NCBI GenBank assembly: GCA_963665295.1
Contig: OY762209.1
Coordinates: 992,001-1,056,000 of the forward strand
From: Syntrophorhabdaceae bacterium
GTDB lineage: Bacteria; Desulfobacterota; Syntrophorhabdia; Syntrophorhabdales; Syntrophorhabdaceae
DNA length: 64,000 nt
Reading direction: 5' to 3'
Made by a program: the position numbers and the translations under genes. Below are positions 8,807-18,462 of this stretch, in pieces. Under the pieces are notes generated by a model, which was not told where the DNA came from, did not search any database, and saw only the letters and a program-made list of their open reading frames with translations. Positions within the stretch are counted from its first letter, which is position 1, and the number at the start of each line of letters is the position of its first letter.

Positions 8807-8919
8807 GGCGCTCGTCCTTAGTGTTTAATGGTGATTCTCAATTATCAACAGTTTACCACAGTCTGAAACCGGGATCGAACAAATATCTCCGCCCGGGGCA
8901 GCCTTAGGGTCCGGCCGCC

Positions 8920-10769
8920 CTAATGTGGGTTCTCGTCCCTCACCGTCACCAGGACCGGGTCTCCCCACGTGTCCGCCACCGTGCCTTTAAGACACAAAAG
9001 GTTTACTATTTTTATGCCCGCGGCAGCAATTATAATTACGATAAGGACCATCACGAAAGCGCAGAGGAACGCGAGGAGATAGAGTTTGTTCGGCAGATAA
9101 TTCACCGTTATGTTGATAAAGCCCGCCCAGAGCGTGATTATTGCCACCCCTATTCCGGGCAGAAGGGTTATCCATATATATTTCTTCTCCCGAGACGGAT
9201 AAGCATTGCGGTTACAATAATCAGGGCGCACGCGGCAAGGAGCTGGTTGCTCACCCCGAACAGGGGCCAGATGGTGGCGATGGTGGCCGTGTAATGCAGG
9301 TATCCCCACGCAAAGGTAAAGACCGATCCCGTGATGAGCATCCCGGGGAGCCAGCGATGGTCGTTGAATTTCGGAAAAACTTTGCCGATCATCTCCTGGA
9401 GGAGAAATCTTCCCGCCCTGGTTCCCGCGTCGATAAGGGTAAGTATGAACACGGCCTCGAACATTATGGCGAAATGATACCAGTATGACATCAGCTTTTC
9501 CATGGACGGAATTTTTGAAAACACATAGGCCATGCCCACCGCAAGAGAAACCGCCCCACCGGGCCTTCCCTGAAGGTTCTCCTGGACCATGGCGGAAAGC
9601 CGGGGAAGGTCGAGGGGCTTCATGCCCAATGCCGCGAACGCTTCGGGCGATGAATTGATAGCGAAGTAATCGGCGGGAACAAGAACGGACGCGGCCACGA
9701 GGGCCATCATGGCCACAAGCCCCTCGAACAGCATGGCTCCGTATCCCACGAAGAGAATATCCTTTTCGCCGGCGATCATCTTTGGCGTGGTACCGGAAGA
9801 GATGGTCGCATGGAACCCGGAGATTGCGCCGCATGCGATAGTAATAAAGATGAACGGGAAGACACCGCCCGGGACAACGGGTCCGCCTCCATGGGCAAAC
9901 TGCGTGACAGGGGGCATTTGAAGGGCGGGCTGCACAAAGATGATGCCCGTGCCGAGGGCAACGATTGTCAGGATCTTCAGGAATGTGGACAGGTAATCTC
10001 TCGGGGCAAGGAGCAGCCACACGGGGAGCACCGAGGCGATAAACGCATAGGCAGGGAGCAACAAAGATATTTGTCTCTTGCTCAGACTGAAAAACGACCT
10101 GAGCATGGGGATTTCCGTAATGGAATTACCAAAAAACACGGCGAGAAACAGAAGGACCACACCGAAAATACTCGCTATGGCAATGGACCTGTTTCCCGGT
10201 CTCCTCATGATAACACCCGTGATCAGGGCGGCAGGCAGGGTAGTCTCCACCACGAGCATCCCCCATGGACTTTCCGCAATGGCGTTTGTCATGGACATGG
10301 ATCCCCCGGCAATGGTCAGAACGAGGATAAGGAGAAAGGCGATGGAAGAAACCGTACCCGCTGTTTCTCCGATCTCGCTTCTCGCGATGTTTGCAAGGCT
10401 CTCGCCCCTGTGCCGGACCGACGCGAAGAGGACGACGATGTCGTGAACCGCACCCCCCAGCACTGCCCCGATCAGAATCCAGAGCGCGCCCGGCAGAAAA
10501 CCGAACTGGGCGGCAAGGACCGGCCCCGTAAGCGGGCCCGCCCCTGCTATGGCCGCAAAATGATGGCCGAAAAGGACAAAACGGTTGGTCTTGTGGTAAT
10601 CCAGGCCATCGGCCATGGTCTCGGCGGGCGTCGGCCGTGCCGGGTCCACCCTGAGGACCTCTGTCGCGATAAAAAGGCCGTAAAAACGGTACGCTATGGC
10701 GAAGACACACAAAGCGGCAAACACGAGCACCGCTGAATTCATTCCCGTCGACAACACTTTGCTCTCCAT
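8920..10769 (-). pseudogene. cstA: Carbon starvation protein A (peptide/pyruvate transporter), frameshifted near 9185
   Basis: FGHHFAAIAGAGP, ITIACGAISGFH and IWPLFGVSNQLLA are in ORF 9168..10769; the last TM helices (KKYIWITLLPG...) continue in another frame to 8920. Confidence 0.85.
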
Positions 10770-10828
10770 AAGAGTTGCATCCCCTGCGACTGTTTTTGTG
10801 TTCTGTAAGACCGTCCCGGCTTTCAGGC

Positions 10829-10876
10829 AAGAATATCCGCCCTCTGACCATTCATCGTCACGGGGCGGATATTCTT
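10829..10876. other. Strong inverted repeat upstream of cstA
   Basis: AAGAATATCCGCCC / GGGCGGATATTCTT form a perfect 14-bp stem, with a further inner TGAC/GTCA pairing. Confidence 0.6.
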
Positions 10877-10943
10877 AACCCGACTTCATGAAAGCAATAT
10901 AACAGATTTGCACAAAAATCGAGGGCTATCTGCCCTCCCCTCC

Positions 10944-10972
10944 GTATCCTTTTCATTGCCTGTTTCGTCTAA
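10944..10972 (+). promoter_or_regulatory. Candidate ECF-sigma promoter
   Basis: GTATCCTTTT...CGTCTAA. CGTC is a typical ECF -10 motif, and it precedes an operon that ends in an ECF sigma gene. Confidence 0.45.
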
Positions 10973-11041
10973 CAGGTAAAGGGCGTGGATTTCGAGGGTT
11001 CGGCGCCTATGGCGCTCCCTCGGTGGAAGGAGGCGAGGCAA

Positions 11042-11236
11042 ATGTGGTTCTGGTGTGGTACATGTTACAGCCTGTGGTGGATGTTCCCCATCATGTTCAT
11101 CCTGTGGGCGATAGTGATGTTTCTCGCCATGAGGGCCTTTTTCGCCGGTCGGCGCTCCTGCTGCACACCCTGGAAGGGATGCGGAATCAAGGATGACGGT
11201 TACGGGCATGAAAGACGGGCATCAAAGGAGGAGTGA
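11042..11236 (+). CDS. Small Cys-rich membrane protein
   Basis: AAGGAGG SD; MWFWCGTCYSLWWMFPIMFILWAIVMFLAMRAFF...RSCCTPWKGC has a CxxC, one TM helix and a CC pair. Confidence 0.6.
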   Translation: MWFWCGTCYSLWWMFPIMFILWAIVMFLAMRAFFAGRRSCCTPWKGCGIKDDGYGHERRASKEE

Positions 11237-11237
11237 A

Positions 11238-11540
11238 ATGAAGGACATGATGAAGATGATGGCGAACGGGTGAGGCGCCCCGGCATCGACGGCAGGCGCC
11301 GTCCCTGAAGGAGCACCGGAGACCTCCGATACAGGGGGCCTCTTTGATGAGTTGTTGAAATGTGTGGAGAAGAGGATCATGGAGTCGCTCAGGGAGCAGC
11401 GCGCGCCCGCGGAGATAGCCCGCCTACTCGGAATCTCCGAAAAGGCCATGGTCACGCTGGTTTACAGGATGGCGCAAAAAGGCAGTATCCGTATTACGGA
11501 AATAGAACCGGTGAAAGGAGATGGAAAGAATGAACGATGA
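11238..11540 (+). CDS. Small winged-helix-like protein with in-frame TGA at codon 12 (candidate selenocysteine)
   Basis: AAGGAGGAG SD then ATG 11238: MKDMMKMMANG-TGA(11271-11273)-GAPAST..., in frame with ORF 11352..11540 (PAEIARLLGISEKAMVTLVYRMAQKGSIRI, HTH-like). Confidence 0.6.
11274..11303 (+). promoter_or_regulatory. SECIS-like hairpin
   Basis: GACGGC-AGGC-GCCGTC perfect 6-bp stem (11288-11303); the loop starts 20 nt after the TGA and has G at its second position. Confidence 0.5.
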
Positions 11541-12033
11541 AGCGATCTGCGGAAAACAGGAAGCGTGTGCCGGGCCGGCCGGCTACGAGACGGTAAGGAT
11601 TGAAAAGACGAAGAACGTATGCCCCATGTGTGAGGACTATGCCCGGCAGCAGGCGTCGAAGGCAGTAGTGGTGATGTGCTGTGAAGGGGCATGTCTCAGG
11701 GGCGAGATTGCGAGACAGGCCGCGAACATCCTCTGCCACAGGCTCGCGCCCGAGAAGACCGTGAGGCTCTGCCTGGGCGGCGCTTTCACAAAAGACACAG
11801 GCCAGAGAAGCCTCGCGAGAAACGGCGCAAGGGTAATAGCCATCGAAGGTTGCTTTCTCGAATGCGCAAGCCGCATGATGAAAGGGGTGATCCCCGGCCT
11901 GGCCCCTGAAGTGGTGATCGCAGACAGGCTCTATGAGTTCGACCGCACCCTCTTCGGCATCGATCAAATGCCCGAAGACCGGATAAAGGTCCACGCCGGG
12001 GAAGTGGCAGCCAAGGTGCTCACTCTGTTATAA
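11521..12033 (+). CDS. Putative zinc-binding protein (DGC-domain family)
   Basis: CPMC, MCCEGACLRGEIARQAA, RLCLGG and IAIEGCFLECA motifs. Confidence 0.75.
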   Translation: MERMNDEAICGKQEACAGPAGYETVRIEKTKNVCPMCEDYARQQASKAVVVMCCEGACLRGEIARQAANILCHRLAPEKTVRLCLGGAFTKDTGQRSLARNGARVIAIEGCFLECASRMMKGVIPGLAPEVVIADRLYEFDRTLFGIDQMPEDRIKVHAGEVAAKVLTLL

Positions 12034-12043
12034 TGGTAGGTTA

Positions 12044-12604
12044 ATGGAGACGAAGCCGAGTTTCGAAGAGATTTACGAAACCCTTCACGTCAAGGTCCTC
12101 CGCTACCTGACAAAGCTCGTCGGGGAGGCGGAGGCCGAAGACGTAACCTAGGAGACTTTCGCAAAGATAAGCCGGTCCCTCGAAGGTTTCCGTGGACAAT
12201 CACAGCTCAACACATGGGTCTACAAGGTAGCCACCAACACGGCCCTGGACCGTCTCCGCAGCCGCGCCTTCAAGGACCCCGCAATAGTGAACATCGAAGA
12301 AATACCCGCAAGGACACCCACTGCCGAGCAACAGGCCATCCGCGAGGAAATGAACGCCTGCGTCCGCGGAGTGATCGACCAACTCCCCGACGACTACCGA
12401 ACCGCGATAGTCTTAAGCGACCTGGAAGGCTTCAAAGACGCCGAAATCGCCAAAATCCTGGGCCTCACCCTATCAACAACGAAAATCCGCCTCCACCGGG
12501 CAAGAACCCGCCTGAAACAGGAACTCTCCACCCGCTGCGTCTTCTACCGAAACGAAGAAAATGAGCTATCCTGCGACGTTAAGCCGGGAGCAGGTGAGAA
12601 ATAA
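12044..12604 (+). pseudogene. ECF RNA polymerase sigma factor with in-frame TAG at 12149-12151
   Basis: METKPSFEEIYETLHVKVLRYLTKLVGEAEAEDVT*ETFAKISRSLEGFRGQSQLNTWVYKVATNTALDRLR (region 2), in frame with region 4 in ORF 12287..12604 (LPDDYRTAIVL...EIAKILGLTLSTTKIRLHRAR). Confidence 0.85.
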
Positions 12605-12667
12605 CGGGAGCACAACAAGGCAATCAACCCTCCCCCATGACCCGTTATCCGGTCGGAAGGTTTTCTC

Positions 12668-12696
12668 TTGACTGGATCAAGTTCCATTGATATCAT
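12668..12696 (+). promoter_or_regulatory. Sigma70-type promoter upstream of the ATPase pair
   Basis: TTGACT-17 nt-TATCAT. Confidence 0.55.
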
Positions 12697-12850
12697 TCGA
12701 CTGTGTCACGGGTGTTTAGTGTTATTTTACGATGTTAGACTGACGCTCTATTCTCAAAAGGACACGGCGTTTGTCCATACTTGAGTTCTCTCATGTGGCG
12801 CCGGCAAATAACGTGCAACCGGACTTCAATTCAATCTGGAGGCAACGGTA

Positions 12851-14143
12851 ATGGCTAAGATAGATGGAATACGAATACAGAACTTTAGAGTCCTCAAAGA
12901 CGTAACCCTCGGAAAGCTTTGGAGTTTGCAACAGGCGGAGCCTCTAACCGCGATGACAGCCGTCATAGGAAAGAATGGAGTTGGTAAGAGTACGCTTTTT
13001 GACGCGTTTGGCTTTTTGTCCGATTGTCTCAAAAGTGGCGTAGAAGAAGCATGCGATCTGCGAGGGCGTGGCGGGTTCGACAAAATTCGTTCTCAAGGGC
13101 AGGACGGCCCCATTAAATTTGAGCTTTACTATAAAGAGGATGGCAATGCCCGTCCAATAACCTATGAGCTTTCCATAGACCTTGACCACATGCATCGCCC
13201 CTATGTTCAAGGAGAGCGACTGAGGCAACGGCGAAAGGGGCAAAAACACGGTTGGCCCTTTTCGTTCCTTATGCTTGACAATGGCCGTGGGGTCGCTTGG
13301 AAGGGAGAGGAGGAAGGTCGTCAGATTGATGAGGGCAAGGGCGATTTTGATCCGTCAGAGTTCATTAGAACAATCATAGAAGAATATGGCAAGGAAGAGA
13401 GCAGGGAAACCGAGGTAGTGGAATTGGAGGACATGAGGAAACTTGGCATCGCTACCCTCGGGTCGCTGAAACAACACCCCCGTATCTCAGCTTTTCGACG
13501 CTTTATGGAAGGTTGGTACCTCAGTTATTTTACCCCGGACGCTGCCCGAAGTCTACCTCTCGCTGGCCCACAAAGGCATCTCAACATTCACGGCGATAAT
13601 TTGGGAAATGTGGTTCAGTTTATGGAGAGGGAACATCCTAAAAAATTCAGAGCGATCTTGGATCAGATTGCAGCGAAAATCCCCGGCATCAATAAGATAG
13701 ATACCGAGAAGACGCCCGATGGGCGACTCCTTCTTCGCTTCAACGATAAGGGATTTTCAGATCCATTCTATGCGCAACAAATGTCCGATGGGACTTTAAA
13801 GGTGTTTGCGTATTATTTGCTGCTTGAAGACCCTACGCCTCCACCATTTTTATGCATTGAGGAGCCGGAAAATGGCCTTTATCACAAGCTGTTGGAATCG
13901 TTAGCAAAAGAATTCCGAGACCATGCCACTGGCCAAAAAGGCGGTTCGCAGATTTTCATCACTACTCACCAACCGTACTTCGTCAACGCTCTCGCCCCCG
14001 AGGAGGTGTGGATTCTAGACAAAATCGGTGATGGTTTTTCAACAATCCGTAGAGCAAGTGCCGACGCCCTTGTGTCCAACATGGTTAACGAGGGATTGCC
14101 GCTAGGTGGTCTATGGTATAGTGATTACTTGGATATACGGTGA
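12851..14143 (+). CDS. ABC-type ATPase (AAA_21/AAA_15-like), non-transport
   Basis: IQNFRVL, Walker A GKNGVGKST, signature MSDGTLK, Walker B IEEPENGL, ITTHQP; no TM segments. Confidence 0.9.
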   Translation: MAKIDGIRIQNFRVLKDVTLGKLWSLQQAEPLTAMTAVIGKNGVGKSTLFDAFGFLSDCLKSGVEEACDLRGRGGFDKIRSQGQDGPIKFELYYKEDGNARPITYELSIDLDHMHRPYVQGERLRQRRKGQKHGWPFSFLMLDNGRGVAWKGEEEGRQIDEGKGDFDPSEFIRTIIEEYGKEESRETEVVELEDMRKLGIATLGSLKQHPRISAFRRFMEGWYLSYFTPDAARSLPLAGPQRHLNIHGDNLGNVVQFMEREHPKKFRAILDQIAAKIPGINKIDTEKTPDGRLLLRFNDKGFSDPFYAQQMSDGTLKVFAYYLLLEDPTPPPFLCIEEPENGLYHKLLESLAKEFRDHATGQKGGSQIFITTHQPYFVNALAPEEVWILDKIGDGFSTIRRASADALVSNMVNEGLPLGGLWYSDYLDIR

Positions 14144-14147
14144 TATT

Positions 14148-14840
14148 GTGCACTTTGAAATCCTCGTTGAAGATACTTCGGGAAAAAGACTTCTTGAGGC
14201 GCTGGTCCCAAAGATACTAGGCGCGAACGGTGGACCTCATACATGGCGCATCATTTCATACAAAGGCATTGGACACATACCGAAGGATTTGCGGGGCAAA
14301 CTTGATCCGTCAAAAAGGGTACTACTCGACCAACTGCCAAGATTGCTGGCAGGCTATGGGAATACGTATCCGAACGGTCTACATGATACAGTTGTGGTCG
14401 TGGTTATAGACTGTGACGACAAGAAGTGCGATACTTTTCTCTCTGATCTGAATCAAATTTTGAACATCTCCATCTCTAAACCTGAGACATTATTTAGACT
14501 GGCGATTGAGGAATGTGAAGCGTGGTTGTTAGGAGACAGGGCAGCGGTTACACAAGCGTATCCTCGAGCAAAGAAGACAGTCCTTGATGGATACATTCAG
14601 GATTCGATCTGTGGCACGTGGGAGAAGCTGGCCGATGCCATTTATCCAGGTGGAGCAAAGGCCCTCGAGGGAAGGCCTTATTTTGAGGTTGGTACCGTAA
14701 AATGCGAGTGGGCTGAACGAATCGGTCAATACATTAACGTTGAAACGAACGCATCATATAGTTTCGGTAAACTCCGTGATGGCTTGAGGAAGCTTGCCGG
14801 GAAAGCAAGGGACACGAACCGAGAACTGCAAAGGACATAG
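14148..14840 (+). CDS. DUF4276-like / TOPRIM-like protein
   Basis: GTG 4 nt after the ATPase stop; ILVED, VIDCDD (DxD), IEECEAWLLGD and C-terminal SYSF motifs. Confidence 0.7.
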   Translation: MHFEILVEDTSGKRLLEALVPKILGANGGPHTWRIISYKGIGHIPKDLRGKLDPSKRVLLDQLPRLLAGYGNTYPNGLHDTVVVVVIDCDDKKCDTFLSDLNQILNISISKPETLFRLAIEECEAWLLGDRAAVTQAYPRAKKTVLDGYIQDSICGTWEKLADAIYPGGAKALEGRPYFEVGTVKCEWAERIGQYINVETNASYSFGKLRDGLRKLAGKARDTNRELQRT

Positions 14841-17379: not shown

Positions 17380-18462
17380 CTAGTGTAGTGTCTCAGTAAC
17401 GCCTTTACAGCGATTCACTTTTTCAAGTATCTCCTCGGCCTTCCTGGTCCATACGAAGGGTTTGGGGTCTTCGTTGTTGCAGCGAATATATTCTTCGATG
17501 GCGGTCACCAGTTCCTGAACGCTTTTGAAGATGCCGCGACGAATTCTCTTTCGTGTGATCTCCCCGAACCAGCGCTCCACCAGGTTAAGCCACGACGAGC
17601 TTGTGGGTGTAAAGTGGGGAACGAAACGGGGGTGTTTTTCGAGCCATGCTTTCACATTGGGGTGGGTATGAGTTCCGTAGTTGTCGAGAATCATATGGAC
17701 ATCGAGGCCCTTTGGCACCTGACGGTCTATGGTACGCAGGAACTTAAGAAATTCGGTATTTCTGTGGCGGGGATAGCAGGAGCCTATGACTTTTCCTTCC
17801 AGAACATTGAGGGCGGCAAAAAGACAGGTAGTGCCGTTCCTTTTGTAGTCGTGGGTCATCGTGCCGCAGCGCCCCTTCTTCATCGGTAATCCCGGCTGGG
17901 TCCGGTCCAGGGCCTGCACCTGGCTTTTCTCATCCACACAGAGTACCACCGCTTTGTCGGGAGGATTGAGATAGACGCCCACCACATCGGTCAGTTTCTC
18001 CACGAACTTCTTGTCTCTGGACAGCTTGAAAGTTTCTACCCGATGGGGCTGTAGTCCATGGGCATCCCAGATGCGCTGCACGGTGGCATGGCTCACGCCC
18101 TTCTCCTTTGCCATGGTGCGGGTGGACCACTGAGTAGCATCTTTGGGAGTTGTATGGAGCGTGGCTTCCACGATGGTGCGCACTATCTCCGGGTTAAGGC
18201 GCCTTGAACTCGGCCCATGGGGTGCGTCCTCCGACAAACCGGAGGGGCCCTGTTCTCTGAAGCGGCCTACCCACAATATCACCGTAGGGCGGGAGGTATT
18301 GAGCCTCTTCGCTATGGCGTTATGGGACATCCCTTCTGCCGCGAGCAGGCAGATGCGGGAGCGTAGAACCACCCTTTGGGGAGTCTTCTTTGCTTTGACC
18401 CATGTTTCCAATGTCTTTCTCTGCTCTTCCGTCATGTCTAGCGTACTGGCTGGATTCCACAT
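17380..18462 (-). CDS. IS630 transposase
   Basis: N-terminal HTH; DDE motifs CVDEKSQ, ILDNYGTH, WLNLVERWF; single uninterrupted ORF. Confidence 0.95.
   Translation of the reverse strand: MWNPASTLDMTEEQRKTLETWVKAKKTPQRVVLRSRICLLAAEGMSHNAIAKRLNTSRPTVILWVGRFREQGPSGLSEDAPHGPSSRRLNPEIVRTIVEATLHTTPKDATQWSTRTMAKEKGVSHATVQRIWDAHGLQPHRVETFKLSRDKKFVEKLTDVVGVYLNPPDKAVVLCVDEKSQVQALDRTQPGLPMKKGRCGTMTHDYKRNGTTCLFAALNVLEGKVIGSCYPRHRNTEFLKFLRTIDRQVPKGLDVHMILDNYGTHTHPNVKAWLEKHPRFVPHFTPTSSSWLNLVERWFGEITRKRIRRGIFKSVQELVTAIEEYIRCNNEDPKPFVWTRKAEEILEKVNRCKGVTETLH

Follow-up and report, generated by a model that had tools for sequence, protein, structure and literature searches.

Based on comparison with its homologs, the open reading frame at 11238–11540 of the window (the whole 64,000-nucleotide stretch of contig OY762209.1 analysed here) is very probably a genuine selenoprotein gene, in which the UGA at codon 12 would be decoded through SelB and tRNA-Sec with the help of a hairpin just downstream. 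Judged by its sequence, the encoded protein is a divergent, short relative of TsoA that forms a separately evolved branch. The same comparison reveals a conserved cassette around the gene, and we propose, with a probability of roughly 0.5, that this Sec-containing winged-helix-like protein (Sec-wHTH) is an accessory in an ECF-sigma cassette that senses soft-metal(loid) or thiol stress. The gene itself has the following parts:

11225..11233, + strand: Shine-Dalgarno sequence AAGGAGGAG of the Sec ORF, seen in the sequence
11238..11540, + strand: Sec ORF, encoding a probable 100-residue selenoprotein, a short TsoA relative with a Met-rich arm that carries Sec12
11271..11273, + strand: Sec codon UGA, codon 12; TGA in 11/11 close-clade loci read
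11288..11303, + strand: upper stem-loop of the putative SECIS, 6 bp with loop AGGC, from its pairing and invariant stem wobble positions
Residues 32–52, and 57–64 with 68–81, of the Sec ORF product: long helix and HTH helices in the predicted model

On re-reading of the letters, the Shine-Dalgarno sequence, the ATG, the in-frame TGA, the frame open to 11540 and the 6-bp hairpin whose loop starts 20 nt past the TGA were all as the sequence-only reading had described them. The upstream gene's stop TGA is at 11234–11236, the start ATG at 11238 and the stop of the ORF at 11538–11540; the other close homologs compared likewise have a GGAGG-type Shine-Dalgarno sequence and an ATG 11–12 codons 5′ of the TGA. 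Short-read contigs from 4/4 runs, one of which may be the source of the window, carry the TGA and have no differing letters or indels over 8900–12700. Because these contigs agree, the TGA, a TAG in the neighbouring sigma gene (12149–12151) and a frameshift in cstA are not assembly errors.

The TGA lies at the same site, 24–28 codons before an invariant Phe, in 11/11 close-clade loci read, and the hairpin earlier proposed as a SECIS element is present in all 11, its loop always 20 nt after the TGA. Eight genomes, of which one has two copies, and two metagenome contigs supply these loci, one contig being near-identical to G053. Two families are represented among the 8 genomes, and amino-acid identity is about 40%. 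A search with the read-through protein gave matches in 11/61 related genomes, with one TGA in 8 of the 12 matches, and a profile search found loci in 13/96 genomes of the class and 42/401 of the phylum. The orders of G257 and G353 had loci in 1/17 and 2/10 genomes, all of them found previously. A word-indexed search that started from this one protein gave 14 candidates, none of them significant, and none of 251 stretches from a back-translated pattern scan of metagenomes was a relative.

Taken by itself, the hairpin is at chance level: its folding z is −0.99, and 33 of 200 shuffles were equally stable. Genome-wide, TGA codons are not enriched before such hairpins (17 at 20 nt; other spacings give 10–21), and TCA, taken as a control codon, also precedes them at 20 nt 17 times. 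Since the hairpin alone is no more than chance would give, the Sec signal rests on conservation across homologs. Four of the six stem pairs are invariant across 10 sequences and 96.7% of stem cells pair, with one change of the G-U type and one pair altered on both sides. At four-fold sites the wobble base is invariant at 3/3 positions in the stem and at 0/7 elsewhere, in a comparison of 6 sequences, one of which was found via the hairpin pattern and is thus circular. When metagenomes were scanned for the hairpin pattern with the codon left free, the 67 matches comprised 4 homologs and 63 non-homologs; TGA occupied the free codon in 4/4 homologs (3 of them near-copies of one another) against 0/63 non-homologs.

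The element also resembles known ones. The published bSECIS pattern has a loop of 3–9 nt with G in its first two positions, a stem of 4–16 bp, a spacing of 16–37 nt and an MFE of at most −7.5 (PMC13188914); the window element lies within these ranges, with the 4-nt loop AGGC, 6 bp, a spacing of 20 and −21.7 kcal/mol over 50 nt. Among this genome's MvhD, FdhA, SelD and HdrA genes, which were located by family searches as a broad motif scan was too noisy, 7/9 Sec codons have a G-led loop 17–22 nt downstream, a range that includes the window's 20.

The genome encodes tRNA-Sec, together with selA, selB and two selD genes over cut-off, so that all four of selA, selB, selC and selD, whose presence had been left for confirmation, are there. 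Although selA and selB are over cut-off in 9/9 genomes of TGA-bearing relatives, their presence does not discriminate, because genomes with Cys forms have both genes too (selB in 6/6, selA over cut-off in 5/6). We also noted that selA seems split into pieces in G353 (G353:C16:161118-162382), a genome with a Cys form; that of the selD pair at G000:C1:639779 and 5230927 one has an in-frame TGA and the other does not; and that HdrA-MvhD selenogene blocks are duplicated near 4.70 and 5.39 Mb of genome G000.

More distant relatives carry Cys or TGA in the same arm, which is what a Sec site leads one to look for in homologs. A profile search of the protein database gave 637 matches; among the 120 listed, Cys stands 28–29 residues ahead of the Phe in 64, the sequence starts directly past this −29/−28 site in 49, and 7 differ, one of them (P0091) with Trp at −29. 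The SECIS-encoded peptide is kept in 46/49 of the listed entries that start past the site and in 11/48 of those with Cys at −29 (kin, hence not independent, so that a p-value overstates the contrast), as expected if the late-starting entries are Sec genes that gene prediction has shortened. DNA was read for two loci, L011 and L022, and has TGA at the −29 site. Inside the close clade the only Cys form is P0010, known as a protein only, with its Cys at −21. MAFFT places Sec12 in the Cys/Sec column of the relatives, an alignment that requires gaps and whose precise register is uncertain.

The TGA is therefore inherited and not a product of decay, because the same-site TGA and hairpin recur in 11 loci, the stem is frozen and distant relatives have Cys or TGA. 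Sec coding, as first suggested from the window alone, is thus borne out by the conserved TGA and hairpin, the frozen stem wobble positions and the Sec machinery. Within the close clade, none of the outcomes that the sequence-only reading had named as telling against Sec (Trp, Arg or Gly at the site or a downstream start in homologs, missing Sec machinery, an unconserved hairpin) came out against it. Its caveat of simple decay fails as the origin of the TGA and survives in another form: the cassette sigma is broken in this strain.

The −29 relatives, hypothetical proteins of the MPEM-C and MEK-U kinds, form a Met-rich long clade with the same winged-helix-like domain and Met-rich arm as the window protein; a Cys or Sec precedes the Phe by 29 residues. 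Unlike the window protein, they have a longer helical arm, and in a model of a Cys-bearing member the Cys lies within the long helix. L022 shares a near-identical hairpin, which encodes AGAV. L011:1438-1776 and L022:1468-1827 would represent a second uncatalogued Sec form, with U 29 residues before the Phe; judged from Cys members, this form falls below every NCBIfam cut-off. A TsoR-like ArsR gene lies upstream in the long clade, and ArsP, ArsM-like, XdhC, P-type ATPase and CDF genes are neighbours. L022 precedes a gene for an ArsM-like methyltransferase, and L011 one for a C-GCAxxG-C-C protein.

The window protein matches no Pfam or NCBIfam model over cut-off (NCBIfam of June 2026). TsoA is listed as a selenoprotein with an LULAXC motif in Table 1 of PMC13188914, which cites Haft and Tolstoy 2025. 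Against the TsoA model NF045695 (cut-off 170 bits), the close-clade locus L004 scores 25 bits (E 1.8e-5), the window protein has no match at E≤1 and its genome none at E≤0.1. The LULAxC motif is absent: Sec12 stands in the context ANG-U-GAP, and the position four residues further along is not Cys. Homology is nevertheless clear in the C-terminal helix and HTH (close clade versus TsoA, hhalign 92%, E 5.5e-7, 57 columns), and in both cases a single Sec stands N-terminal to this domain and a SECIS with an AGGU loop follows about 20 nt past the UGA. A further link comes from the long-clade relatives, which follow an ArsR gene whose product has TsoR as its best or near-best model. The window protein differs in having neither the partner Cys nor the N-domain of about 55 residues (100 against about 150 residues), the close-clade Sec lies 24–28 residues before the conserved Phe against 40 in TsoA, and the close clade sits in a cassette with DGC and ECF sigma genes. 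The Tso operon consists of TsoR, TsoB and TsoC, as defined from part of a review and from model names, whereas the window gene has a membrane peptide, DGC, sigma and cstA as neighbours. Because it fails the motif and score tests of TsoA, we regard the window protein as a relative of TsoA and not a member. The view that it belongs to no recognised selenoprotein family thus stands in that no catalogued family scores over cut-off, and falls in that its C-terminal half is homologous to TsoA.

Of 30 phylum loci compared, 24 are TsoA-type, their U preceding the Phe by 40 residues, and the two that were scanned scored 227–228 bits on NF045695. All 24 (L023-L047) have the helix and HTH C-terminus, which the TsoA family name does not mention, and several lie directly behind an ArsR-type gene. 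In a tree of 70 sampled rows and 68 columns, with many forks unresolved, TsoA (support 96/89) separates from the close clade, which holds 16 rows at 100/99 support; the Met-rich long clade falls between the two, and L037 branches outside the close clade on a long branch. The position equivalent to Sec12 depends on the alignment: ungapped, it falls on TsoA's second Cys (−25); by hairpin sequence, on the −29 site of the long clade; and MAFFT joins it with TsoA's own Sec.

In the close clade, the order of the cassette is an ECF-type promoter, a membrane peptide, Sec-wHTH, DGC and a SigZ-like sigma. Its other members in the window are:

10944..10971, + strand: putative ECF-sigma promoter, GTATCCTTT-N13-CGTCTA; a looser motif lies upstream of close-clade loci
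11042..11236, + strand: membrane peptide of 64 residues, single-pass, its hydrophobic stretch (peak hydropathy 2.32) flanked by Cys on either side
11521..12033, + strand: Cys-rich DGC-domain (PF08859) protein, intact (Pfam E 1.8e-17)
12044..12604, + strand: SigZ-like ECF sigma with a two-Cys C-terminal tail (best NCBIfam model SigZ, under cut-off)

The looser promoter motif, GTATCC...CGTCT, precedes 9/9 close-clade loci, in contrast to 0/7 loci of the long clade, and we infer that the cassette's own sigma would read this conserved promoter. The membrane peptide, which has no Pfam or NCBIfam match, is encoded in 8/9 close-clade loci. It is in frame with Sec-wHTH in L004 and L006 (in L004 possibly by a one-base slip) and joined to the Cys form in P0010, a hint that the two act jointly. 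The DGC gene lies directly 3′ of Sec-wHTH in the close-clade loci read; in the window its likely start is 11530, overlapping the end of the Sec ORF. At E<1e-8 the sigma has no paralog in this genome, and its two-Cys tail is conserved in 5 relatives. Sigmas of group ECF238 such as CorE2 are reported to be activated by metals via a Cys tail, and SigZ belongs to ECF238 (PMC7826278). The cassette sigma recalls this group by its best model (SigZ or PRK11922) and its two-Cys tail, a likeness drawn from the NCBIfam model and the tail, and it scores below the SigZ cut-off. Within the text and one supplement of PMC7826278, an association of ECF238 with DGC was not found, and no Sec-wHTH partner was seen in the part of that paper covered.

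The complete arsR-acr3-arsC trio occurs within about 4 kb in 3/7 close-clade regions, all from one family (genes of G057 were judged by likeness and the others by family scans), and is missing from the other 4/7 and from the window. The strict promoter pattern had 17 matches in 14/96 genomes, against 8 for a reversed control. Nine of the 17 precede the cassette, one a cut-off copy of it and one a UXX-star/HesB operon; the remaining 6 have no evident target, which is about the level of the reversed control. That operon (L188:170-1451, − strand, G057) has this second ECF promoter copy before genes for a small Met-rich protein and an unnamed Cys-Cys-Cys protein; it also holds a gene of UXX-star family 1, in which two TGA codons are in frame, and a HesB-family gene with a TGA.

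Several features flank the cassette in the window. On the minus strand, cstA (PF02554, 8920–10769) has its frameshift near 9180–9190, and its C-terminal membrane segment continues in the other frame. Between the divergent cstA and cassette promoters, an inverted repeat with 14-bp arms (10829–10878, single copy in the genome) is possibly a terminator or an operator. Directly past the cassette, a pair of genes for an AAA_21 ATPase and a DUF4276 protein (12851–14840, + strand) resembles a defence or toxin-antitoxin-type module. Farther on, a transposase-like ORF (17380–18462, − strand), which we take to be of IS630 type, has a PilT-like gene pair on one side and an scpB-like gene on the other.

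We suggest a plausible mechanism for the cassette, in which what Sec-wHTH binds, what it works with and how it regulates are all inferred. Soft-metal(loid) or thiol stress, for example As(III) or Cu(I), would switch the SigZ-like sigma through its Cys tail, and the activated sigma would start transcription of the cassette at the conserved promoter. In the flexible Met-rich arm, the exposed Sec could then bind or react with the stressor, a soft metal(loid) or an oxidant, and the arm may pass it to or from the Cys-rich partners, namely the membrane peptide, the DGC protein and the sigma tail. The helix and winged helix would serve as a docking or dimer module, and the protein would tune or buffer the response.

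In this strain, the cassette copy may be silent, as suggested by the TAG that breaks the sigma gene where relatives have Gln. One alternative is therefore that the window gene is a Sec gene by descent that is now silent or decaying since its own sigma is dead. There is no paralog to replace the sigma, the adjoining cstA is frameshifted and both lesions are real; the loop, moreover, is AGGC in the window but AGGU in the other 10 close-clade loci. On the other hand, the promoter, Shine-Dalgarno sequence, ORF, stem, membrane peptide and DGC gene are all intact, and the loop is not out of place: two of this genome's MvhD selenogenes have GGC loops, and AGGC fits the bSECIS pattern as given in part of PMC13188914. 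We allow silence or decay a substantial minority chance. Such silence is compatible with our explanation for the family, whose reading it leaves unaffected.

A second alternative, the main rival of the proposed mechanism, assigns the wHTH to DNA: Sec-wHTH would be a sequence-specific DNA-binding regulator, whose affinity for an operator is altered by oxidation of, or metal binding to, Sec12. In the structure model, residues 1–30 form an arm of low confidence and residues 31–90 have a pLDDT of 85–96; the best structural matches of this confident part are the HTH domains of DeoR, Lrp/AsnC and Z-alpha proteins (Z 6.8–7.3), and Pfam HTH matches to the window protein are weak. The HTH half of the window protein is basic (pI 8.9), and the gene adjoins regulators, the sigma here and the TsoR-like ArsR in the long clade. 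However, the matches to Lrp/AsnC, DeoR/SorC and Z-alpha domains (Z 6–7.3) are generic ones to a common three-helix fold, and unlike those proteins the window protein has no effector domain but a short Sec/Met arm. No match reached Z 8 among 48,161 chains, Foldseek on both models gave none at E≤0.001, and no strands that could form a beta wing were called in either model. The family consensus of the recognition helix, SEESVLF, is acidic and hydrophobic, and the pI of the HTH half ranges from 4.8 to 9.3 across 6 proteins. Because of this recognition helix and the varying charge of the domain, we treat DNA binding as a resemblance of fold and consider such a regulator unlikely. The original description of a Met-rich, Sec-containing, metal- or redox-sensing DNA-binding protein is accordingly kept for the Sec and the winged-helix-like fold and reduced, for the DNA binding, to a likeness of fold.

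It is far less probable that the UGA is a true stop, leaving a conserved leader of 11–12 residues, a hairpin with some other role and a wHTH started downstream. Most database representatives do start past the TGA, in many cases at a Met immediately ahead of LF, and 4/11 close-clade loci have ATG, GTG or TTG four codons before the Phe. Yet the 11 loci share no downstream start, and 5 of them, including the window, have no in-frame start before the Phe; in the window ORF there is no ATG, GTG or TTG from the TGA to F36, where the conserved helix starts. The stop at the site is always TGA and never TAA or TAG in the close-clade loci, leader and wHTH remain in frame despite 3-nt indels among homologs, and relatives have Cys in the same arm. 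A chance nonsense mutation in a decaying gene, which the real lesions of two neighbours might bring to mind, can be dismissed, as the same TGA and conserved hairpin occur in 8 genomes of two families.

Catalogued bacterial selenoproteins are mostly oxidoreductases or have redox motifs (PMC13188914); in that paper's table of 119 families, none is named HTH or DNA-binding, and the window protein is unrecognisable there. A TsoA entry was not found in the part of the PMC13326102 supplement covered. Searches by title or abstract start found no literature on Sec winged-helix proteins, and literature searches found no selenoprotein work tying helix-turn-helix to DGC and no relevant work on DGC and arsenic. 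The window gene thus probably adds an uncatalogued Sec subfamily to the selenoproteins, and there are probably two when the −29 form is counted. Among the 120 listed of the 637 database matches, 49 entries appear cut at the UGA, and their re-annotation is possible. TsoA relatives share a winged-helix-like domain and are tied to metal(loid) regulators, a TsoR-like ArsR in one branch and a Cys-tailed ECF sigma in the other, so TsoA gains a testable role in signalling. A bolder proposal, which we hold to be doubtful, is that Sec-wHTH directly regulates the metal(loid)-sensing ECF sigma, or else the promoter of this sigma, and that further selenoproteins belong to the sigma regulon. If such a Sec-switched control module were true, the whole TsoA family would be regulatory winged-helix selenoproteins with Sec at more than one site, and the supply of selenium would gate the response via UGA read-through.
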